A DNA stretch of 64,000 bases from positions 351,942 through 415,941 of the forward strand of contig JAJTYH010000003.1 of assembly GCA_021463465.1 (NCBI GenBank), read 5' to 3'. Both the position numbers and the translations under genes were made by a program. Position 1 is the first letter of the stretch, and each line of letters opens with the position of its first letter. This document shows, piece by piece, positions 3,270 to 57,470 of this stretch. The notes below the pieces were generated by a model. The model was not told the DNA's origin. It searched no databases and saw only the letters and a program-made list of their open reading frames with translations. The DNA comes from a bacterium. GTDB taxonomy: Bacteria > Patescibacteriota > Dojkabacteria > SC72.

Positions 3270-3925
3270 TGAAGATAACTAAAATTGAGTTACAGCAGAA
3301 GAGGCGGAGATTCAATCTCGAAATTGAAGGTAAGTTTGTCTGCTCTGTTTCTGCAACAACACTGACTCATTATAATCTGTATAAGGGTAAAGAGATTACA
3401 GAGGACGAAATTCAACAGATTGTTGATAAGGAGGTTGAAAATCGTTTCTTTGATAGGGCGGTTGCTCTACTTAGCGCACGTCTTAAAAGTCGTTGGCAAG
3501 TCACGCAATATTTGAACACTCTTTTTATTAAGAAGAAAGGGTTATGGTTTGGTAAAGATTTTCCTAATCAAGTAGGTGTAACTGAAAGTGTTTTGTCCAG
3601 ACTTGAAAAATTAGGATTAATAAATGACCATGAGTTTGCCAGAGCATTTGTTGAAGGTAGAATCAGAAGTAGACCCAGAGGAGGCTCGCAAATTATTGCT
3701 GAGCTTCTATCTAAAGGTATATCTAAAGAAATAGCTAAGACTGTTGTGTACGAAATATTGCCAGATAATGATGATATGATATTTAGAGTATTTAGAAAAA
3801 AGTATCCAAATCAAACTCTGGATTTAAAGAATCGTAAACAAATAGATTTTCTTTTAAGAAAAGGATTTGATTGGGATGATATATCTAAACTATCCAAACA
3901 ACTTAAAGATGACTCTCAAGAGTAA
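3269..3925 (+). CDS. recX: RecA regulator RecX
   Basis: 218 aa immediately after recA. The GTG start overlaps the recA stop (TAGTG). Three-repeat helical composition with LGLINDHEFARAFVEGRIRSRPRGGSQIIAELLSKGIS is typical of RecX. Confidence 0.7.
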   Translation: MKITKIELQQKRRRFNLEIEGKFVCSVSATTLTHYNLYKGKEITEDEIQQIVDKEVENRFFDRAVALLSARLKSRWQVTQYLNTLFIKKKGLWFGKDFPNQVGVTESVLSRLEKLGLINDHEFARAFVEGRIRSRPRGGSQIIAELLSKGISKEIAKTVVYEILPDNDDMIFRVFRKKYPNQTLDLKNRKQIDFLLRKGFDWDDISKLSKQLKDDSQE

Positions 3926-13033: not shown

Positions 13034-13104
13034 TGCCAGGTCGTCTAATGGTAGGACTACGCTCTCTGGAAGCGTGTATCTTAGTTCGAATCTAAGCCTG
13101 GCAA
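13034..13104 (+). tRNA. tRNA-Gln (anticodon CUG)
   Basis: The cloverleaf was folded by hand. Acceptor is TGCCAGG/CCTGGCA (U1:A72, as is typical of bacterial tRNA-Gln). D arm is GTCT-AATGGTA-GGAC. Anticodon arm is ACGCT-CTCTGGA-AGCGT, giving anticodon CTG. T arm is CTTAG-TTCGAAT-CTAAG. Discriminator is A. Confidence 0.85.
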
Positions 13105-38434: not shown

Positions 38435-41400
38435 ATGCTAAGAAAGTTATTTAAACTCCCCAAGAGATATTTTTCTCGATTTATTTCTATTTATCTTGCA
38501 CTTTATCTTACAGTAAGTCCTGCATTAGCCTTCGCAACTACGGAAGGGCTTTTGGTGGATGAAGGCGCTCAAAGTACACCTGTAGTAGCGGAAGAAGAGA
38601 CGGTGCAGACTCCTGAGCCCACAGTCGAAGAAGAATCATCAGAAGTTACGCCTGAACCAGAAGTTGAACCTGAGGTTGTACCGGAGCCAAAGGTAGATGA
38701 ACCTGAAAATGATGAGGTTGATGTAGACGTAGTTAAGTCAGCGGATGGCGAACTTGAAGTTGGTGTGATTGAAACTACACAGTGTTTGGAAAACTCTCTC
38801 AACCCTTGTATTGGAACAGATAAGGAAGATTACGCACCGCATGAGGTAGTTACGTTGAGAGGCCATGGTTACTTACCAGAAAGTCGATACCTACTCATTA
38901 TTACTTCAGCTAATCAACCTCCTGTACGTTTTGAAGCTGAAATTATTACAAACAGCATTGGTGGTTTTAATTACAGTTATCAATTGGATGGTAGATATCG
39001 TCCTGATTACGCAGTAGAGGTTAGGAGTTTGCTCGGTGATATTATTGCAACAGATACATTTACTGATAGTCGTACTATCAATTCTGCTACAGTGAACGGC
39101 GTTGCGAGTATAACCGTCGCTCAGGGTACAACAATATTAGGTGGGGTTAACGTTTCTACAAATGGAAGTGGAAATAATGATGATTGGGCAAGTACGGGAT
39201 GGAGAATCTCTACAAGTGCTCCTGGTGGAGTTAGTTGTGATAATTTCGAGCCCGACATTACCGACGATGTAATGGGTGCTACTAAAGCCTTTAATATGAC
39301 AGCTCCTAATACACCAGGTATTTATAATGCATACTTTATTGCTTACAACAACGATAGTTGTAGCGGTGGAGCAAGTGCAGTCTACGTTCTTGAAAATGCT
39401 GTTACAGTGACAGGACCTGATCTTACAATTTCAAAAAGCAATGATGTAGGAGGTGTTGTAAATGTTGGAGGCTCATTTAACTGGATTATTACGGTTAAAA
39501 ATGAAGGGACTTCATCTGCCATCTTTAACAATGAAGATATTTTGTCGGACTCATTACCAAATGATGGGGTATCGTTTGTTGATACAAGTGATTTGGTAGT
39601 AACAACTGCGGGGGGAGTAACTGGTTCTATTGATTGCGATATTAACAGTAGTACACTTGTTTGCGACGATAACAGCGGTGGCTCTACAGTTGTAATTCCT
39701 GCTGGCGGTTCGTTTACTGTTACAGTCGAAGTGATTGCAAATGAAATTAGAACTTTATCTAACCCAAGAAAAGGTGGAAAGTGTGAAGTTGACCCAAATG
39801 AAGAAGTCGCTGAACAAAATGAGCATAATAATAAGTGTAATGACTCAGTGAAAGTTAACCCAGATACTGGAGTTACTAATCCACCGTTAGGACAATTTTG
39901 TGGCTTAGACATTGCTCTTGTTCTTGATAATTCTACAAGTATAAGCTCAGGAGAGTTGACTCAGATGAAAGCTGCAATGACTGCGTTTACATCCGCATTC
40001 AATGGTACACCTACCGAGTTTTCCGTCTCAAGATTCGCCACTACTGCATCGGTCGTTCAATCATTTACTTCCAATATAACTGCAGTTAACGCTGCAATTA
40101 ATGGAATTCCTTCAGGCGGAGGGTATACAAACTGGGAAGATGGTTTATTTAAAGGTCAAAGTACTTTGACAAATAGACCTACATACCCTGATTTGATGAT
40201 TTTTGCTTCCGATGGTAATCCAAATAGGGTTGATAACGGTACAGATGCAAGTGAGTCGCAAGCAGTAAGCGAAGCTAAAATCATTGCAAATAACATAAAA
40301 ACTGCAGGGGTGAGGATACTTGCACTTGGGATAGGTGATGAGCTGGATACACCTAATCTACAGACTATCTCTGGTAATAATGTTAATACTGGTATTAGTT
40401 CTGATGTTATAACTTCGGACTTCGCGACCCTTGCTGCCGATTTAGCTGATTACGCTATTCAACTTTGTGGAGGAACTATTAATGTAAAAAAATTGGTTGA
40501 CGGTAATCCTGCTGCTAACTGGGTATTTACTATTGATGGTGATCAGCATATTACAGGAGCTGATGGCTTTATCCCTTCAGTTGAAGTAGATAATGGTACT
40601 TACAGTGTAGTTGAGACTCCAAAGAATGGATTTACATTCCAATCTGCCGTTTGTACGATCAACAATCAGTCAGTAGGTTCACCGATTACTAATGGCGTAG
40701 GAGCAATCTCAGTAGATTCAAACGATATTGTGACCTGTACATTTAACAATATTACGAACGCATTCTGTGGCGATGGAGTTGTGAACCAGCAGTCCGAGCA
40801 GTGTGACAGTGGAGCTTCCAATGGTATTGCTTGTACTCCAACTTATGCTAACAGCTGTAATTACTGTAGTAACACCTGTCAAACCGTGAATATTCATGGG
40901 CCATACTGTGGTGATGGAATCAAGAATGGTCCTGAGCAGTGTGATGGCTCAGATGGTGTATCTGGGTCTGATTTCGCATGTACACAGAGTTGTGAGTTGG
41001 ATTTGGTTGAAAAGAAAGTAATGATCTGTCATGCGACAAGTAGTAATACTAATCCTTATGTCTCTAATGAACCTGCTAAATCAGCTGATGTAGCGGGTCA
41101 TGATGGCCATAATGGACCAGTTTGGTCTGCAGGAATTGATGGCGATTGGGGAGATATTATACCTCCGTTTAATTATGTAGGAGGTTCATATCCAGGCAAG
41201 AACTGGACAGCTGAGGGTCAAGCGATTTGGAATAATCAATGCGAAATTGAAAAGGGAACTATTGTTGTACAAAAGACCACTGTACCAGCAGGCAATCAAA
41301 CCAACTTTGATGTTTCTATAACTGGGGATGGATATATTTTTGAAAATGATAAAGGTACTGTAAGTGATTCACAGGATCACTCATTTATCGTTGAACCAGG

Positions 41401-44400
41401 AACTTATTCAGTTGAAGAGGATGCGGTTTCAGGCTGGGAAATTACGGGCAATACCTGTGATGATGTTACAGTTGCAAACGGAGAGACTAAGTATTGCCAG
41501 ATTACTAACACTAAAGTAACTGATGTGTCAATCACAAAATCGGACACACCTGATCCAGTATTAACTGGTGGTTTGTTGACTTATATTGTGACGATTGAGA
41601 ATGAAAGTGATACTAATGCAGAGAATGTTGTAGTAACCGATAACCTTCCTGCCGCATTTATGGCCATTTTCTCGGTAATACCAAGTCAGGGTTCATGTTC
41701 AGATACAACCCTTCCTTCTCCTGTGGTTTGTGAACTTGGAACTTTAGCTGCAGATGCCAGTGCCACAATTGAAATTAAAGGCTTAGCTTTTGGCATAGGA
41801 AGTATTGAGAATAATGCTTCAGTTACAACTTCGACTTACGAGATTGATTTGAAAGATAACACTACCGTTGAGGATACGACTATTGTAGATCAACCATCAG
41901 CGTGTGTTGAAGGCCAGAGATGGGCTAGTAGTGTAGTGAGTGCTTCGCAAGGTTTGCAAAAAGATGGATCGACCGTACTTTTGTCCCGCAGTGTACCTGC
42001 GAGTGCGATTGGTTTACCTGATGCTGCCACTAATCCTGATACAGGCTTTTATAGTTTAGGTAAGGGTGGTTCTATCGTGGTGGCGTTCACCTCACCAGTT
42101 GTTAACGGTGAAGGTACAGACATTTCAATTCATGAAGTGACTAATGGAAGAGAGAATTACCCTGAAGAAACCGCAAGTGTAGAGGTCAGTACGGACAATG
42201 GAGGAAGCTGGCACAATGTAGGTAGTGCATCAAGTTTGTCCACTAATGGTGTGACTTTGATTGATATAGCACCTTACACAGGTGTAACGCATGTTAGAGT
42301 GACTGATACTACTAACTTTAACCTCAATCCAAATTCGAATGCTGATGGATTTGATTTGGACGCAGTTGATGTCGACTGTAAGGCTTCTATAACCGTGATT
42401 AAAGATGTTGATATCAATGGTGATGGACAAGTTGATAAGACTAATTCTACTGATTGGGCTTGGGATATCAATGGAAGTGGTAATTATGAGACTGGAAGCA
42501 AAGTAGATGTCCAACCTGGATCATATGTGATTTCTGAAAGCCAGAAGCCTTCATACCATGTAGTTTCCTTAGTTTGTGGTCAGACTAACTACGGTGCAGT
42601 TGAGAGTCAGCAGATAAGCGTCTCGGAAGGTGAAGAACTTACTTGTACTTTTACTAACAGTGTCGATACTGGTTCTGTGAAAGTTAACAAGAGAGTTGAT
42701 CTAAATGGTGATGGAGTGTGGGGAGGTGGAAATGAGAATAGTAAGGCATATATCAGCTCCCTTGGATTTAGCTGGACTTTAGATGCAGTTGGTTCAATTA
42801 ACTTCGGCGATACCGTTACTCCTGTAATCACAGGTGCTCATCAAGTGAATGAGAATAGTCTCGAAGGCTACCACTTTGTTGCATGGTATGTAACGGGTGA
42901 AGAGGGACGTTCATGCACAAATCCTAATGGAACAACCGTACCTGTTGATATTAATGTCGTGAAGAACTCAACAGCTGAAATCACTTTGTGTAATGCAAGG
43001 GATATGGGTCAAATTACTATTGTTAAGGATTCAGTTAACAATGATGGAAAAGACTTTAACTTTTCAACTAGTACTTTGGGGTCATTTATATTAGATGATG
43101 ATGGTAATAATGGAAATCAGCACTCAAATACCAAAGTGTTCAATGTACCTTCGGGAGCATATTGGGTACGTGAGAATAGTGCCTCGGGCTGGAAACTGAC
43201 TGATTTGGTTTGTATCGGAGATGACAATTCTGTTGTTGATATCGAAAATCGAAGAGCTGATTTAGACCTAGATTTGAATGAAAATATTACCTGTACCTTT
43301 ACCAATACTAAGTTAGCAGAGATCAAGGGAACGAAGTTCAACGATCGAAACGGTGATAATCACCAAAGCTTACTCTCAGGAGAGACTTGGATGAACGGCT
43401 GGAAGATTTTTATTGATGAAAATCACAATAGCAGTTATGACACTGGAGAACTTACAGATACAACCAGTGGTTGGTTCTTTATGGATTTAGGAAAGTATGA
43501 TTTCGAGGGTTTGTTACCGGGAACTTATACGGTTTGTGAACAAATGCAAGAAGGTTGGTATGCCTCAGGTCCAGTCTGTCGTGAGATATTACTTGAGCCA
43601 GGTGATAGGAAAGAGGTGAATTTCGGTAATCACCAATCGCTAAGAATTATCGCTTCAAAGATTGTCTGTAACAGTGAAGATGACTTACCTAACTGGGGAA
43701 GTGGAGCAGGTAATATCAATTCAAATACTGCAACCAATTTCGTTGCGAATAACCCAGATTGTCAGTTAGTTTCTGACTGGCAGTTCCAGTGGGGATATGA
43801 TGGTGAAGTAGATAAGTACGGTAATGGAGACCAGTTAGGTTTGGCTCCGGAACCATGGCAGATTCTTGGATCGACGGATGCTAGTGGTGTAGCTGACATT
43901 GAGATTATGACAACTCCTGAAGGAAAAGGACTTAGTAACTTGTGGGTACGTGAGAGTTTAATGCCAGGGTATGTGGCATTCAGTTATCCACCAGCACAAC
44001 CTGAAGAAAATCCATACTCGGCTGAAATGTATTGTCACAAAGATGTCCTTTATTATGACAATTTTGATCGAATTGAAGAGGTAAAGTTTGGTGAGACCTA
44101 TTACTGTGTAGCCTTCAATGCTCTAAAGACTGGTGATATCACCGTTACTAAAGAGGTTGTAGATCCAGATGGTAATCCAGTTGAAGATACATCTACTCTC
44201 TTTACAGTGAATCTTAATGAAAGCAATCCACAACAGCTTACTGATGGTCAGTCAGTGGTTTACGGTGACTTGCCAATCGGTACATATACCGTGACTGAGG
44301 ATCCATCCGGAAACTATACTTTTGATAGTTTCGAAGGGGATGAAAATAGCGAAATAGAAGGAGCGCAGGTTACGGTTACTGAGGAAGGTAATACTAATGT

Positions 44401-46369
44401 GAAGGTAATCAATAAGCAGATTAAGGGTAAAGTCATTGTGCACAAAGATGTAGTAGATGCTAACTTTGACTCCGAAGCTACTAGCGACGATCTTTTTGAA
44501 GTAGTACTTGGTGGTGAAGGGTTAGAAGGCGCAGTGAAGTTTATTTCTGATGCACAGAGTGAACCAGTGGTTGCCGAATATGAGCTTAATCCCGGTGAAT
44601 ATAGCTTTACTGAGAATAATCTTCCCGGTTATAACTTCTTGGGTTGTTACATTGAAGAAGTTGAAGCAAGACAAGTTGGAATCGAAGAAAATGTCGCGAT
44701 TTATGATACGCAGGTCGAAGTAGAACTTGGTAGCAATCAAACCAAGGAATATACCTGCGTCAACCAGGCAGTGGGGGCACAGTTGCAACTGGAAAAAACT
44801 AACAATGTCCTTGGAGTTGATCAAATTGCAGGTAATGTTGTTCAGTATACTTTGACAGTAACTGCACCAACTGATGACGAAGTTCCAGAGGATGTGGTAT
44901 TAACAGGATTAAGTGATAACCCTTATGTCTTAGAAGATGTGAAGGTGGTAGATTTGACTCCAGAGGGTTTCACCTACGTTAACGGTACCTGGACAGCAAG
45001 TTCCGATATTAGAGGTGATATCAAAGCTTCAAATGTAACTACAGAGCCTACTTACGCTTCACCTGGTACATGGAACTTAGGTGATATGGTGGAAGGTGAG
45101 GTAGTAACACTTACGTACCTTGCTACGATTTCTAACGCTCAAGATGCAGGTTTATACAAAGACTTAGCATGGACTCAAGGAACTAATGTATTGGGAAATA
45201 GCATTTATGGCACTGCAGCCTTCGGCCTCTTTGCTGGTACACAAGTTAATGTGATTGATGATTTGGAAGAGGGTCAAGCTGAGGTGCTTGGTGTGTCATT
45301 GCCAAACACAGGTGCTAATATAATCTGGGCAATATTTGCTTTGGCTTCCTTCTCATTGGGTGTAATCCTAGTTGGATATGGACTTGGTAAGAAGAGTCGC
45401 AAGATTTCCATCTTGGTGGCCGTCTTGATACTGTTGGGATTGGTTGGATTTTCACGACCTGAAGATGTATACGCGGCTTCTAGCCTTGCCGTACGAATCG
45501 AACAGCCAGAAGCTTTGTCAAATGACAATACAATTAAGGTAGGGTTTGTAGCACTTGATTTAGAAGGTAGGGATGTGAGCGTACAATGTCTTAAGAAAGG
45601 ACCTGGAGACGGTAGTTTCGTAGACTTTGGGACAACTATCAACTTAGGAAGTGGTGGAAATAGCGGTGATTGTAACGTAGGCAGCGCTATACTAAATGCA
45701 GATGGTACTTACGAATTCAAAGTTGAGGCCACAGCAGAAGAGGAAGTAATTGAGTCAGAAGCAGCGTCAATGACATTGGACACAGTAGGTCCTGATATGA
45801 TTACTGGGTATGAGAAGAGTAAGAATGCTTGTGAATATACTTTGAACTTAACAACAGCAAGTGACGGACAGACCTCAGCAGTACAGATTTTCAGATCGAC
45901 TGAGCGAACCTTTGTAGCTAACAGTTCAACACTTGTGGTTGAGCTTCCTGCCACACCTGGCCAGGTAATTGAATATGTTGATAATGTATCTAATTGTAAT
46001 CTTGAGTATTTCTATGCCATTAGAGCTTTGGATAATGCTGACAATAGCTCAGACTTTGTAGCTGACTCACTTGTTGAGGTCACTCCAGGAGTTGTCGATG
46101 AAGATAGACAAGAAGGAGAAGATGGAGAAGTTGCTGGTAGTGAGACTGAATCAGACGACGGTGCGGTAAAGGGTGAAGCAGATAACGAAGAGGATGAAAA
46201 TCAAGGAAATACCCCGGGAGAAGAGACCAAAGTGACTTCAACTGGAGGAGACAATAATGTAATGTGGATTGTAGGAATTATTTTAGGCGGAGCAGTTGTA
46301 TGGCTATTGACCCGACTCGGGATTATACAATCAATCTTCCAGTGGATAATGATGAAGCTAAGAAAGTAA
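38435..46369 (+). CDS. giant multi-domain cell-surface protein (signal peptide, EP-rich acidic linker, DUF11 repeats, vWA domain, Cys-rich CGDG repeats, Cna-B/prealbumin-like repeats, internal LPNTG sorting signal, C-terminal TM)
   Basis: 2,644-aa single ORF. Signal peptide MLRKLFKLPKRYFSRFISIYLALYLTVSPALA. vWA block LDIALVLDNSTSIS...IFASDGNPN. DUF11-like blocks LTISKSNDVGGVVNVGGSFNWIITVKNEG and VSITKSDTPDPVLTGGLLTYIVTIENES. Repeats CGDGVVNQQSEQCD and CGDGIKNGPEQCD. The sorting signal LPNTG is at 45299-45313, followed by a TM and KKSRK. A further 351 aa follow, ending in a second TM plus KLRK. Confidence 0.85.
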   Translation: MLRKLFKLPKRYFSRFISIYLALYLTVSPALAFATTEGLLVDEGAQSTPVVAEEETVQTPEPTVEEESSEVTPEPEVEPEVVPEPKVDEPENDEVDVDVVKSADGELEVGVIETTQCLENSLNPCIGTDKEDYAPHEVVTLRGHGYLPESRYLLIITSANQPPVRFEAEIITNSIGGFNYSYQLDGRYRPDYAVEVRSLLGDIIATDTFTDSRTINSATVNGVASITVAQGTTILGGVNVSTNGSGNNDDWASTGWRISTSAPGGVSCDNFEPDITDDVMGATKAFNMTAPNTPGIYNAYFIAYNNDSCSGGASAVYVLENAVTVTGPDLTISKSNDVGGVVNVGGSFNWIITVKNEGTSSAIFNNEDILSDSLPNDGVSFVDTSDLVVTTAGGVTGSIDCDINSSTLVCDDNSGGSTVVIPAGGSFTVTVEVIANEIRTLSNPRKGGKCEVDPNEEVAEQNEHNNKCNDSVKVNPDTGVTNPPLGQFCGLDIALVLDNSTSISSGELTQMKAAMTAFTSAFNGTPTEFSVSRFATTASVVQSFTSNITAVNAAINGIPSGGGYTNWEDGLFKGQSTLTNRPTYPDLMIFASDGNPNRVDNGTDASESQAVSEAKIIANNIKTAGVRILALGIGDELDTPNLQTISGNNVNTGISSDVITSDFATLAADLADYAIQLCGGTINVKKLVDGNPAANWVFTIDGDQHITGADGFIPSVEVDNGTYSVVETPKNGFTFQSAVCTINNQSVGSPITNGVGAISVDSNDIVTCTFNNITNAFCGDGVVNQQSEQCDSGASNGIACTPTYANSCNYCSNTCQTVNIHGPYCGDGIKNGPEQCDGSDGVSGSDFACTQSCELDLVEKKVMICHATSSNTNPYVSNEPAKSADVAGHDGHNGPVWSAGIDGDWGDIIPPFNYVGGSYPGKNWTAEGQAIWNNQCEIEKGTIVVQKTTVPAGNQTNFDVSITGDGYIFENDKGTVSDSQDHSFIVEPGTYSVEEDAVSGWEITGNTCDDVTVANGETKYCQITNTKVTDVSITKSDTPDPVLTGGLLTYIVTIENESDTNAENVVVTDNLPAAFMAIFSVIPSQGSCSDTTLPSPVVCELGTLAADASATIEIKGLAFGIGSIENNASVTTSTYEIDLKDNTTVEDTTIVDQPSACVEGQRWASSVVSASQGLQKDGSTVLLSRSVPASAIGLPDAATNPDTGFYSLGKGGSIVVAFTSPVVNGEGTDISIHEVTNGRENYPEETASVEVSTDNGGSWHNVGSASSLSTNGVTLIDIAPYTGVTHVRVTDTTNFNLNPNSNADGFDLDAVDVDCKASITVIKDVDINGDGQVDKTNSTDWAWDINGSGNYETGSKVDVQPGSYVISESQKPSYHVVSLVCGQTNYGAVESQQISVSEGEELTCTFTNSVDTGSVKVNKRVDLNGDGVWGGGNENSKAYISSLGFSWTLDAVGSINFGDTVTPVITGAHQVNENSLEGYHFVAWYVTGEEGRSCTNPNGTTVPVDINVVKNSTAEITLCNARDMGQITIVKDSVNNDGKDFNFSTSTLGSFILDDDGNNGNQHSNTKVFNVPSGAYWVRENSASGWKLTDLVCIGDDNSVVDIENRRADLDLDLNENITCTFTNTKLAEIKGTKFNDRNGDNHQSLLSGETWMNGWKIFIDENHNSSYDTGELTDTTSGWFFMDLGKYDFEGLLPGTYTVCEQMQEGWYASGPVCREILLEPGDRKEVNFGNHQSLRIIASKIVCNSEDDLPNWGSGAGNINSNTATNFVANNPDCQLVSDWQFQWGYDGEVDKYGNGDQLGLAPEPWQILGSTDASGVADIEIMTTPEGKGLSNLWVRESLMPGYVAFSYPPAQPEENPYSAEMYCHKDVLYYDNFDRIEEVKFGETYYCVAFNALKTGDITVTKEVVDPDGNPVEDTSTLFTVNLNESNPQQLTDGQSVVYGDLPIGTYTVTEDPSGNYTFDSFEGDENSEIEGAQVTVTEEGNTNVKVINKQIKGKVIVHKDVVDANFDSEATSDDLFEVVLGGEGLEGAVKFISDAQSEPVVAEYELNPGEYSFTENNLPGYNFLGCYIEEVEARQVGIEENVAIYDTQVEVELGSNQTKEYTCVNQAVGAQLQLEKTNNVLGVDQIAGNVVQYTLTVTAPTDDEVPEDVVLTGLSDNPYVLEDVKVVDLTPEGFTYVNGTWTASSDIRGDIKASNVTTEPTYASPGTWNLGDMVEGEVVTLTYLATISNAQDAGLYKDLAWTQGTNVLGNSIYGTAAFGLFAGTQVNVIDDLEEGQAEVLGVSLPNTGANIIWAIFALASFSLGVILVGYGLGKKSRKISILVAVLILLGLVGFSRPEDVYAASSLAVRIEQPEALSNDNTIKVGFVALDLEGRDVSVQCLKKGPGDGSFVDFGTTINLGSGGNSGDCNVGSAILNADGTYEFKVEATAEEEVIESEAASMTLDTVGPDMITGYEKSKNACEYTLNLTTASDGQTSAVQIFRSTERTFVANSSTLVVELPATPGQVIEYVDNVSNCNLEYFYAIRALDNADNSSDFVADSLVEVTPGVVDEDRQEGEDGEVAGSETESDDGAVKGEADNEEDENQGNTPGEETKVTSTGGDNNVMWIVGIILGGAVVWLLTRLGIIQSIFQWIMMKLRK

Positions 46370-46989
46370 TGCCTTGGTCTTTGAAAGCAGGGATTGCTCT
46401 GATAGTTATTGGAGCAGTCCTAGCCTTTCTGAACTTTCACACGATTCTATTTAATGAAGTTAATTATCTGGTGAATCAGCCTCAACCTGATTATGCTGAT
46501 GTCGAAATTAGTGAAAGTGACAATACAGAGGTTAAAGACAATATCGCATTCTTAAGTCCAAACTTTGGAATTGCAATCCCTAAGATTGGAGCTAATGCTA
46601 ATGTAATTTTAGACGTTGACCCTTTTAGTTATAATCAGTACACAGAGGCATTAAAAGGAGGCGTAGCACATGCTAAAGGTACCCCCGTGCCAGGTCAGAG
46701 TGGAAATATTTTTATGTTTGCCCATTCTGCAGTAAATTTTTACGAATCGGGGAAGTATAATGTTAATTTCTATCTGCTACCTAAGCTGATAGAGGGTGAT
46801 AAGATTTATGTCTCTTATCGAAAAAAGATTTATACATACGAGGTTGAAAAGGTAAAGATTGTTAGTCGGACAGATGTACACTATTTATCTAAACTTGAAG
46901 AGTACAACACCTTAACACTTATGACATGCTGGCCAGCTGGTTTGAATATAAACAGGGTTATAGTTATTGCAAAACAACTCAACCTTTAG
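46369..46989 (+). CDS. sortase (transpeptidase)
   Basis: Catalytic TLxTC motif TLMTCWPAG, His in NIFMFAHSAV, and N-terminal TM anchor. The ATG overlaps the stop of the giant gene (TAATG). The track ORF 46264 start lies inside the upstream gene. Confidence 0.8.
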   Translation: MPWSLKAGIALIVIGAVLAFLNFHTILFNEVNYLVNQPQPDYADVEISESDNTEVKDNIAFLSPNFGIAIPKIGANANVILDVDPFSYNQYTEALKGGVAHAKGTPVPGQSGNIFMFAHSAVNFYESGKYNVNFYLLPKLIEGDKIYVSYRKKIYTYEVEKVKIVSRTDVHYLSKLEEYNTLTLMTCWPAGLNINRVIVIAKQLNL

Positions 46990-54731: not shown

Positions 54732-54803
54732 CTCCGCGACCAGGATTCGAACCTGGAACCAACCGGTTAACAGCCGGTCGCTCTACCGTTGAGCTATCGC
54801 GGA
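54732..54803 (-). tRNA. tRNA-Asn (anticodon GUU)
   Basis: The reverse complement folds by hand. Acceptor TCCGCGA/TCGCGGA. D arm GCTC-AACGGTA-GAGC. Anticodon arm ACCGG-CTGTTAA-CCGGT, giving GTT. T arm CCAGG-TTCGAAT-CCTGG. Discriminator G. Confidence 0.88.
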
Positions 54804-55958: not shown

Positions 55959-56743
55959 TTGGATTTCAACTGGTTTGAAATCTCGGTATAAAGGTTTTTA
56001 ACTATGGTTGTGCTGGTTTTCAAGAAACCATACTTAGGTACATTTGCGACGTTGTTTTGAACCTTAGCAGCAGCTTCCAATTCGGCTAACCAACCTTCCT
56101 TGAGATCTTGGACACTTTTGTTTACATAATACTCAACAATTTCAGCCTTCTTGTCTTCAAACTTCACCTTTTCAGTACCGTATAACACATCCTTATATTG
56201 TTTAAAGAAATCCTCAAGCTCCTTGTCCGTGTAGGACACTCTCTTGGCAAGAACCTTCTCCATCAAAAGACCTATTTTAATCTGCTCTCTGACATCTTGC
56301 TCTGTAAAATTGTTGGCTTTTAGCGTGGCAAGTACTGCGTCTCGTCCTCCATTTTCATTGTAATAGTCGTTTAGACGTTTCTGTATATCATCTTCAGTAA
56401 CTGCGACGCCTTCTTTTGCGGCTCCTTGTGTTACGAGCTCTTCTTGTATCAAGCTTTTGGTAGTGCTAAGCCCGTAAGTCTTCTCAAGTCGATTGTAGAA
56501 GTCACCTCTGGTGATTCTTACACCATTAACAATAGCCACACTGTAGGAGTTATTTAGGTATTGCACAAGTAAATCAACAAGTGCAAATGAAAAAACAAGA
56601 ATTAAAGCCAGGACAATCGTCTTAACAACTTTGTCTGTATTGAATTTCTCTCTTAGCTTATTCAAATCAATCTTTGGAAGTGTTAACTTCTTAGGAATTG
56701 CAATTTTAGCAGGTGTAGCAACTTTCTTTTCGGTCTTAGCCAT
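55955..56743 (-). CDS. SurA-N-terminal-domain-like / PrsA-like membrane-anchored chaperone lacking an obvious PPIase domain
   Basis: Start chosen at MAKTEKK (ATG 56743). It has a TM anchor and then a helical domain resembling the SurA N-terminal chaperone module. Weak assignment. Confidence 0.4.
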   Translation of the reverse strand: MAKTEKKVATPAKIAIPKKLTLPKIDLNKLREKFNTDKVVKTIVLALILVFSFALVDLLVQYLNNSYSVAIVNGVRITRGDFYNRLEKTYGLSTTKSLIQEELVTQGAAKEGVAVTEDDIQKRLNDYYNENGGRDAVLATLKANNFTEQDVREQIKIGLLMEKVLAKRVSYTDKELEDFFKQYKDVLYGTEKVKFEDKKAEIVEYYVNKSVQDLKEGWLAELEAAAKVQNNVANVPKYGFLKTSTTIVKNLYTEISNQLKSN

Positions 56744-57470
56744 ATTTAAGAATGTACAAGTTATATTTACGTACAAGAATAGCAGAAATTACCCCTATCA
56801 GCAAAATAATTAACAATGGGAACAATGAGTCACCTGTCTGTGGCAGACCTTCTTGAGCAATTCCACCAATATTCTCAGCGCCAGGGGTAGGGGTAGCGTA
56901 GACTAGAAAGTCTGTATAAGAGTTGTTGGTATCTGTGAACTCATGGCGTCCAAGGCTTTCACCAGATGCACCGACTATTGCAGTCTGATTGTCTGGCACC
57001 ATATTGTTGCCGAAGTCCCAAAGAGAGTTAGAATTAGGTTGATCGTAAAAGATCTGGTCCACGTGCACTCCTTCTGTTGTCACAATAGAAATTGCGTCGG
57101 TAGCGGTCCCACCGTTTTGTAATCCGAGCCTAGGTGTAGGCATATTGCAATTGGGGACGCCTACATCGCAGATTAAAAAGTATGAATGTGCCGGGATAGT
57201 TGCTGAAAAGGTTAACTGCTCTTGGAAGGTTGTACCAGCAATGAGAATCTTCCAATTGTTTAATACAACAGTGTTGGCAGAAACATTGAATAATTCAATC
57301 CATTCCTTGCCAGTATCTTCTCCTTCAGGGTCAAAAAGTACTTCATTGATAATCACAGGGTTAGGAGTCTCGCCAGCCAGGACACTTTGGTCTAGCCAAA
57401 TAAGGCTAAACAAAAGTAGAAGTAAAATAAAAATAGGTTTAAAAGGTTTTAAAAAGTTTTTCATACTCAA
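56736..57470 (-). CDS. LPXTG-anchored lamin-tail-domain (LTD) surface protein
   Basis: Signal peptide, LTD signature VIINEVLFDPEGEDTGKEWIELFNVS, and the C-terminal sorting signal LPQTGDS plus TM plus RK. Confidence 0.7.
   Translation of the reverse strand: MSMKNFLKPFKPIFILLLLLFSLIWLDQSVLAGETPNPVIINEVLFDPEGEDTGKEWIELFNVSANTVVLNNWKILIAGTTFQEQLTFSATIPAHSYFLICDVGVPNCNMPTPRLGLQNGGTATDAISIVTTEGVHVDQIFYDQPNSNSLWDFGNNMVPDNQTAIVGASGESLGRHEFTDTNNSYTDFLVYATPTPGAENIGGIAQEGLPQTGDSLFPLLIILLIGVISAILVRKYNLYILKYG

Follow-up and report, generated by a model that had tools for sequence, protein, structure and literature searches.

The window, a stretch of 64,000 nucleotides (nt) from a Dojkabacteria genome (Patescibacteriota; GenBank assembly GCA_021463465.1, contig JAJTYH010000003.1, positions 351,942 to 415,941), contains a single open reading frame (ORF) at 38435..46369 on the forward strand, whose 7,935 nt translate into a surface protein of 2,644 amino acids (aa) with a sortase motif, LPNTG, in its interior and a sortase gene directly behind it. 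This ORF is probably an in-frame fusion of two coupled neighbour genes that most likely works as a polyprotein. The source genes belong to a conserved three-gene unit in Patescibacteria, mainly in Microgenomates and Dojkabacteria groups, which encodes a giant VWA/SpaA/DUF11 adhesin with an LPXTG signal, a module protein of ~300 aa (signal peptide, two fibronectin type III (FnIII)-like domains, acidic linker and C-terminal transmembrane (TM) segment) and a sortase. The original prediction, made from the letters of the window alone, had offered gene fusion and polyprotein as alternatives; both are supported, but they do not compete, fusion being the origin of the ORF and the polyprotein its likely functional consequence.

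The protein (Table 1) starts with a Sec-type signal peptide, assigned by reading the translation together with hydropathy, and continues into a giant adhesin body with a VWA domain at aa 492-650 (Pfam E-value 6.5e-15) and matches to DUF11 (3.3e-17), SpaA_2 (4.7e-14), SpaA_4 (1.9e-12) and SpaA. This content of VWA, SpaA and DUF11 domains is the make-up of a Gram-positive-type tip adhesin. LPNTG, the sole LPXTG in the protein, is followed by 25 uncharged residues (aa ~2294-2318; TM1) and the basic string KKSRK, and the same reading frame runs for 351 aa beyond the motif, through a second hydrophobic segment (TM2), an ectodomain and a linker, to a last hydrophobic segment (TM3, aa ~2610-2634) and a C-terminal KLRK. 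The N-terminal signal peptide and the LPXTG with a ~20-residue hydrophobic stretch and positive tail are those of a sortase substrate, but the signal does not lie at the extreme C-terminus, and neither the Pfam Gram-positive anchor (PF00746) nor the NCBIfam LPXTG-anchor model was among the matches for this protein. The internal signal and its in-frame extension lie exactly where the original prediction had placed them, and hydropathy confirmed the predicted membrane-spanning end with KLRK and without an LPXTG before TM3. The predicted N-terminal adhesin of ~2,290 aa, in turn, has to be shortened to a mature product of about 2,260 aa after removal of the signal peptide.

Table 1. Features of the fusion ORF and its downstream sortase gene, in window coordinates; a slash marks a predicted signal peptidase cut
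Feature	Position	Strand	Description and basis
N-terminal Sec-type signal peptide	38435..38536	+	MLRKLFKLPKRYFSRFISIYLALYLTVSPALAFA; translation and hydrophobic segment; cleavage site inferred from the ALAFA/T pattern
Giant adhesin body	38537..45298	+	Acidic/Pro-rich linker, VWA, several SpaA/prealbumin-like (CnaB-type) and DUF11/CLIPPER domains; Pfam and NCBIfam
End of adhesin body			...EGQAEVLGVS, immediately before LPNTG
Junction stretch across LPNTG			...AEVLGVSLPNTGAN...
Junction peptide with LPNTG sortase site			AEVLGVSLPNTGANII
Internal sortase motif LPNTG	45299..45313	+	aa 2289-2293
TM1, stop-transfer segment of the sorting signal	45314..45388	+	ANIIWAIFALASFSLGVILVGYGLG; hydropathy; AlphaFold2 helix, model residues 28-48
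KKSRK	45389..45403	+	aa 2319-2323; predicted cytoplasmic basic tail and n-region of the next segment
TM2, internal signal-peptide-like segment	45404..45475	+	h-region ISILVAVLILLGLVGF, c-region SRPEDVYA, predicted signal peptidase I site VYA/A; AlphaFold2 helix 54-72
Module ectodomain	45476..46100	+	Two beta-sandwich (FnIII-like) domains; conserved Cys pair in the first
Acidic disordered linker	46101..46261	+	G-E-V-A-G and G-A-V-K-G copies of the family motif G-[EQ]-V-[LA]-G; AlphaFold2 pLDDT <50
TM3, amphipathic helix and basic end	46262..46369	+	...MMKLRK and stop; hydropathy; AlphaFold2 helices 340-359 and 362-375
Sortase gene	46369..46989	+	206 aa, N-terminal TM anchor; Pfam PF04203, E=7e-24

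Comparison of orthologous loci, as the original prediction had proposed, revealed both the one-gene and the two-gene state. With one genome per species scanned, 77 related loci came to light, nearly all of them patescibacterial; those that carry a label include Dojkabacteria/WS6 and Shapiro-, Collier-, Gottesman-, Davies-, Levy- and Woesebacteria. At each locus the module frame was found and then extended, which allowed the classification of 72 loci, 45 of them fused and 27 with a stand-alone module gene. Fused loci follow the pattern of a giant ORF with ...G(E/Q)VLGAS(T)xLPxTG, a TM, a basic loop, a second TM with an AxA-type end, and the module. Stand-alone module genes encode ~310-345 aa with their own Met and signal peptide, and in 24 of the 27 loci the adjoining upstream gene encodes an adhesin (about 370 to >2,000 aa) with a canonical LPxTG-TM-basic-stop end. 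The two genes of each of these 24 loci share 8 nt (ATGnnTAA type) or 4 nt (ATGA), or else an in-frame ATG comes right after the stop, as in a directly abutting TAAATG example ('...KSGNKK*MKLKLFFF'). Because the genes overlap or abut, one base change interconverts the fused and split states.

In 61 of the 68 informative loci, including 37 of the 41 informative fused ones, the module is directly followed on its strand by a sortase gene. Genes upstream of the adhesin were considered as part of the unit and rejected, as related loci do not preserve the GT2 glycosyltransferase and the 209-aa and 420-aa ORFs of the window; what is conserved as a unit is adhesin, module and sortase. Complete genomes with this trio include CP011214.1 and OY969569.1. 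In a neighbour-joining tree built from 73 modules, fused and split sequences group into clades that interleave, and Fitch parsimony required five changes of state (four to eight in 25 bootstraps) compared with ~22 after shuffling, a count that is approximate owing to the simple tree, its about 250 columns and some very large distances. A Met is kept in or next to the basic loop, at the place of the former start codon of the module, in 37 of 82 fused representatives, and this retained residue favours fusion as the usual direction of change. The clade of the window, which groups with the Dojkabacteria-labelled loci L010 and L012, has lost the loop Met.

The family is large, and the fused architecture is its majority state. 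When 1.84 billion cluster representatives were searched exhaustively with a HMMER profile of the module, 1,950 matched at E<=1e-3, of which 532 reached E<=1e-30, and architecture classes were counted in the best 149 representatives (50% identity). An internal LPXTG and hydrophobic stretch with at least 200 aa beyond it was present in 124 of these; 19 are short, either stand-alone or N-terminally truncated by the gene call, three are long with a variant motif (LAQTG, LAVTG, VITG), and three are long with AATG or AITG in place of LPXTG. LPXTG is hence kept in 124 of 130 long representatives, although their modules are only ~30% identical, with LPATG as the commonest form (57 representatives). 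A chance match of LPNTG to the sortase pattern was dismissed, given that an LPXTG and a TM occupy the equivalent place in 124 of the 149 homologues.

The continuous frame of the window is also authentic. The sortase protein was recovered on nine contigs from independent sequencing runs, one of which (SRR17318675) holds the full 7,935-nt ORF at 100% identity; a strain variant in SRR30163053 differs by 21 substitutions without gaps, amounting to 13 synonymous and six non-synonymous codons, all far from the junction, and three further runs hold partial copies of the ORF at 99.98-100% identity. GenBank likewise lists, as one entry, a 2,644-aa protein of the cluster to which the window protein belongs at 90% identity (MCC7290032.1, 'VWA domain-containing protein'). 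The agreement of these independent assemblies, identical or indel-free, rules out an assembly error or missed stop at the junction in the lineage of the window, the possibility that the original prediction had flagged for inspection.

The junction bears signs of continued function. In fused representatives, TM1 spans ~21 residues and TM2 ~15 uncharged residues, and the loop between them, which replaces both the tail of the adhesin and the Met-Lys-Lys with which the module would start, has a median of eight residues and a net charge of +4 that never falls below +2. Together, loop charge and TM spans obey the positive-inside rule for a hairpin crossing out-to-in and in-to-out, and the loop supports the earlier suggestion that KKSRK doubles as the n-region of a second signal peptide. 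TM2 shares homology with the genuine signal peptide at the N-terminus of stand-alone modules. Ahead of the conserved module N-terminus, an [AV]-x-A site occurs in 60 of 116 fused and 13 of 16 stand-alone sequences, against 8.4% of control windows in the same proteins, an enrichment of about six-fold; this criterion replaced a looser (-3,-1) score threshold, which 75% of control windows passed and which therefore did not discriminate. TM2 thus appears to behave as a signal peptide, with the residues ASS following its predicted cut in the window (SRPEDVYA/ASS). Retention of both the LPXTG and the adjacent sortase, despite ~30% identity between modules, argues that the sortase still acts on the internal motif.

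The downstream part of the ORF, which the original prediction did not place in any family, is a conserved sortase-partner protein. Pfam, NCBIfam and PDB sequence searches with the C-terminal 321-376 aa found no family, and homologues of the last 321 aa share 27-41% identity. In an AlphaFold2 model of junction and module built on 37 homologues, two beta-sandwich domains were predicted at a pLDDT (predicted local distance difference test) >95, with helices at TM1, TM2 and TM3 and disorder near LPNTG and in the acidic linker. The model identifies the ectodomain as a tandem FnIII-like pair; the Ig-like module of the original prediction thus comprises two beta-sandwich domains of FnIII-like type. 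Conserved features include the Cys pair of domain 1, the FnIII signature YYYAxRAxDxxGNxS, a Y-x-K motif opening domain 2 and a strongly conserved mature N-terminus (LSVRLEQPKSPTN).

The motif G-[EQ]-V-[LA]-G recurs in the module linker. In adhesins it stands directly before LPXTG (window 45281-45298, loci L010-L083; consensus EGEVLGAST.LPATG), and it appears again once or twice in the linker ahead of the last TM (window 46113-46170), one of its Gly residues being 97% conserved; it may act as an extended element for recognition. The idea of a hidden sorting motif ahead of TM3 was rejected, since a search found LPXTG-like strings in only two of 222 family members. The rare modules with their own LPXTG-like signal, L020 (5959-6942; LPQTG-TM-RRSRK) and P0160 (VPVTG-TM-RKHKRG), hint that the C-terminal TM and basic tail of the module may descend from a sorting signal. 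Four loci of a deep-branching module clade (L074, L076, L079 and L081) comprise adhesin and module, with no recognisable sortase in the fetched flanks, and their linkers contain LPKE or LPKEG-like strings before the G-x-V-L-G motif. Another locus, L002:2965-4952 (Logan SRR22388342), has a 131-aa ORF of only a signal peptide and a Pro/Ser/Thr-rich linker, followed by a perfect 13-bp inverted repeat at ~3327-3372, a module with truncated leader and a sortase, and looks like an adhesin-gene deletion derivative or an assembly chimera.

The sortase gene is translationally coupled to the fusion gene, as had been predicted: the stop codon TAA (46367-46369) shares a base with the ATG of the sortase (46369-46371), forming a TAATG overlap at 46367-46371. 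In addition to its PF04203 domain, the 206-aa protein matches TIGR01076 (59 bits, cut-off 39), and the His (FMFAHS), Cys (TLMTC) and Arg (NINRV) motifs, read from the translation, are at their expected positions. Domain, catalytic motifs and N-terminal anchor together make it a PF04203 sortase, and it may represent an unclassified group of Patescibacteria sortases.

Loss of the stop codon between such genes yields a topologically coherent protein, because the tail of a sorting signal and the n-region of a signal peptide are both cytoplasmic and basic. In the proposed mechanism, the N-terminal signal peptide would start export of the adhesin, which would come to lie outside the cell, until TM1 stops transfer by crossing out-to-in and leaves KKSRK in the cytoplasm. 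TM2 would then cross in-to-out and re-initiate export, placing the module outside, and TM3, crossing out-to-in, would anchor it with KLRK in the cytoplasm. The adjacent sortase would cut LPNTG between Thr and Gly and move the ~2,260-aa adhesin to an acceptor, presumably a cell-wall precursor, while signal peptidase I would probably cut TM2 after VYA. The resulting products would match those of two-gene relatives, save for a TM1-loop-TM2 hairpin that replaces a separate C-peptide and signal peptide, and adhesin and module would be made 1:1 at one translocon.

Several points weigh against this explanation. Both cleavages, the acceptor and the role of the module are points that we infer, for all members of the family, from their sequences. 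Fused sequences preserve the [AV]-x-A site less strictly (52%) than stand-alone ones (81%), so that some lineages may have lost processing by signal peptidase. The sortase is not assignable to a class, staying under every NCBIfam class cut-off (the best being class C, NF033745, at 64 bits against a cut-off of 160). The count of fused/split transitions is approximate, as stated above, and any advantage of the fusion through stoichiometry or co-localisation is speculative.

Alternatively, LPNTG could be a relic in a protein that stays uncut, with the giant adhesin held by three TM helices and the module acting as a membrane-proximal stalk. The three long representatives with AATG or AITG indicate that an uncleaved form is apparently tolerable, the module has a TM anchor of its own, and cleavage at LPNTG is itself deduced. 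Nevertheless, we regard a relic as unlikely, considering that LPXTG persists in nearly all long representatives over very deep divergence, with three of the remainder carrying variant motifs, that a translationally coupled sortase remains directly downstream in fused loci, and that a TM1-loop-TM2 hairpin would be odd to preserve over a plain linker if cleavage were unneeded.

It is similarly improbable that the module itself serves as the acceptor, with the sortase joining Thr2292 of the adhesin to a module amine (a Lys or the N-terminus made by signal peptidase) to form a basal-pilin-like base with one acceptor per donor. Conservation of the adhesin-module-sortase trio agrees with such a role, as do a long acidic linker and TM suited to a wall-spanning base, the rare modules with their own LPXTG-like signal, the analogy with the SpaCB tip-basal pilin fusion (PMC5152845), and the sortase itself, whose best NCBIfam match is of class C and whose nearest solved relatives are the class C pilus sortases 2w1j, 6ixz and 3o0p (E~1e-10). 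The module, however, has an FnIII rather than a pilin CnaA/CnaB fold, and the candidates for a pilin-like Lys nucleophile did not hold up: K115 of the Y-S-K motif (96%) gives way to Arg in three lineages, suggesting a conserved charge rather than a nucleophile, and K13 of the N-terminal EQPK occurs in only 63% of sequences, the window protein having Glu instead. As both residues are replaced in some sequences, no universal Lys acceptor is supported. The sortase, moreover, does not qualify as a class C (pilus-polymerising) enzyme: it scores under the class C cut-off, and by eye, which is not a formal test, no lid motif (DPW/DPF/DPY) was seen, the lone DPF coming after the IPKIG strand, outside the lid position.

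Separate synthesis of the module by internal translation initiation, with fusion only at the level of the reading frame, appears very unlikely. The Met retained at the old start position in 37 of 82 fused homologues would suit it, and the window carries a purine-rich AAGAAGAG a few bases ahead of ATT, TTG and GTG codons (45404-45418); yet there is no ATG at this place in the window or in Dojkabacteria-type relatives, a TTG or GTG start would drop the basic n-region and shorten the h-region, and ribosomes translating the adhesin would read through anyway, so that the fused product would be made regardless. The remaining reading, an artefact or pseudogene in which a stop or frameshift between KKSRK and ISILVAV was missed and two ordinary adjacent genes exist, is effectively refuted even though a single base change would switch the state in two-gene relatives and one related assembly (L001/L041) is rich in frameshifts, for independent assemblies from five or more sequencing runs, the indel-free variant with 21 substitutions among them, agree exactly at the junction, the frame is continuous in 45 related loci and 124 representative clusters, and even L001 holds LPKTG-TM-KKRK-TM-module in one frame. 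In that assembly (GCA_040767225.1, Dojkabacteria AnMBR.bin290), the adhesin is broken up over four ORFs and folD over three, and the module protein P0004 seems to start inside TM1 because the sequence is frameshifted.

Internal LPXTG motifs are already known from two systems, SpaCB and the streptococcal Zmp proteases, so that the fusion extends sortase biology and does not overturn it; these published precedents and the wide occurrence of the fused form in Patescibacteria go beyond the original prediction. Full-text literature searches (sortase with candidate phyla radiation (CPR) or Patescibacteria; internal LPXTG) returned no description of such an architecture in CPR bacteria. In SpaCB of Lactococcus lactis pSH74, the vWFA tip pilin SpaC, which has an internal LPSTGGSG, is joined to the basal pilin SpaB; spaC and spaB exist as two distinct genes in L. 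rhamnosus GG, several strains retain the fusion, and the cluster also contains sortase genes (Tarazanova et al., 2016; PMC5152845). Compared with SpaCB (KX138410) as published, the window protein likewise joins a VWA adhesin with CnaB/SpaA-type domains, an LPXTG at the junction and a small surface protein in one ORF, and its parts are likewise separate adjacent genes in relatives, here in 24 abutting or overlapping loci. The two cases share their evolutionary logic.

The differences from SpaCB are considerable. The window module lacks the CnaB fold, pilin-motif Lys and own C-terminal LPXTG of a basal pilin; instead, it is a tandem FnIII-like protein without a pilin motif that is held by a TM, and family modules nearly always lack a C-terminal LPXTG. 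The conserved Patescibacteria unit contains no backbone pilin gene and one unclassifiable sortase, in contrast to SrtC1, SrtC2 and the housekeeping SrtA of the lactococcal system, and the window adhesin is two to three times larger. Furthermore, hundreds of Patescibacteria sequence clusters contain the fusion, which has changed state on several occasions. A tblastn search with the VWA region, aimed at the SpaCB junction, gave no match.

Streptococcal IgA1 protease/Zmp carries a non-C-terminal LPXTG, two TMs and a second signal-peptidase site (PMC3518915). The arrangement LPNTG-TM1-KKSRK-TM2-VYA/A, with two hydrophobic segments and a predicted signal-peptidase-type site, follows the same membrane logic. 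In Zmp, however, the motif is near the N-terminus and a small piece would be wall-linked, with the large enzyme downstream, whereas here LPNTG begins at aa 2289 of 2,644, with the 2,260-aa piece upstream and the small piece downstream. The window protein also lacks the M26 zinc metalloprotease (HEXXH) of Zmp, no peptidase family being among its Pfam and NCBIfam matches, its downstream piece has its own C-terminal TM anchor, and its origin by fusion of two genes is documented by two-gene orthologues. With the canonical Schneewind-type signal, it shares the signal peptide, the pentapeptide, a hydrophobic stretch of ~21 residues, a basic tail and a neighbouring sortase, and differs in that the signal is not C-terminal; two-gene relatives carry the exact canonical form. 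Another protein of the window, a 244-aa lamin-tail-domain (LTD) protein encoded at 56736-57470 on the reverse strand, also ends canonically in LPQTG, a hydrophobic stretch and RKYNLYILKYG, which indicates that the same genome uses an ordinary C-terminal LPXTG beside the internal one. Outside these genes, the window has a GC content of about 38%, an almost uniformly positive GC skew with a cumulative skew rising throughout its 64,000 nt, and two tRNA genes (13034-13104, forward strand; 54732-54803, reverse strand).

Sortase substrates are usually defined and searched for by a C-terminal signal, and the giant CPR adhesin family described here carries its signal internally. Standard LPXTG-anchor models miss the window protein, and GenBank lists its cluster member only by the VWA domain; annotation pipelines and sortase-substrate predictors need to allow for internal signals. 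The fusion partner is a previously undescribed sortase-neighbour protein and, with about 530 clusters at E<=1e-30, constitutes an unstudied protein family. The repeated interconversion of fused and split states amounts to a natural experiment on a sorting signal and a signal peptide sharing one cytoplasmic loop. Going further, one might propose, tentatively and against the balance of probability, that the FnIII module is a dedicated membrane-tethered platform for the adhesin, the trio a self-contained display machine and the fusion selected for a 1:1 ratio at one translocon; the sortase may then move the adhesin onto the module, or the module may present the sorting signal to the sortase. If true, the trio would be a machine distinct from both classical wall anchoring and pilus polymerisation in ultra-small, probably episymbiotic bacteria. 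The adhesin-module-sortase cassette is, in any case, a concrete candidate for the display of host-attachment proteins in Microgenomates and Dojkabacteria.

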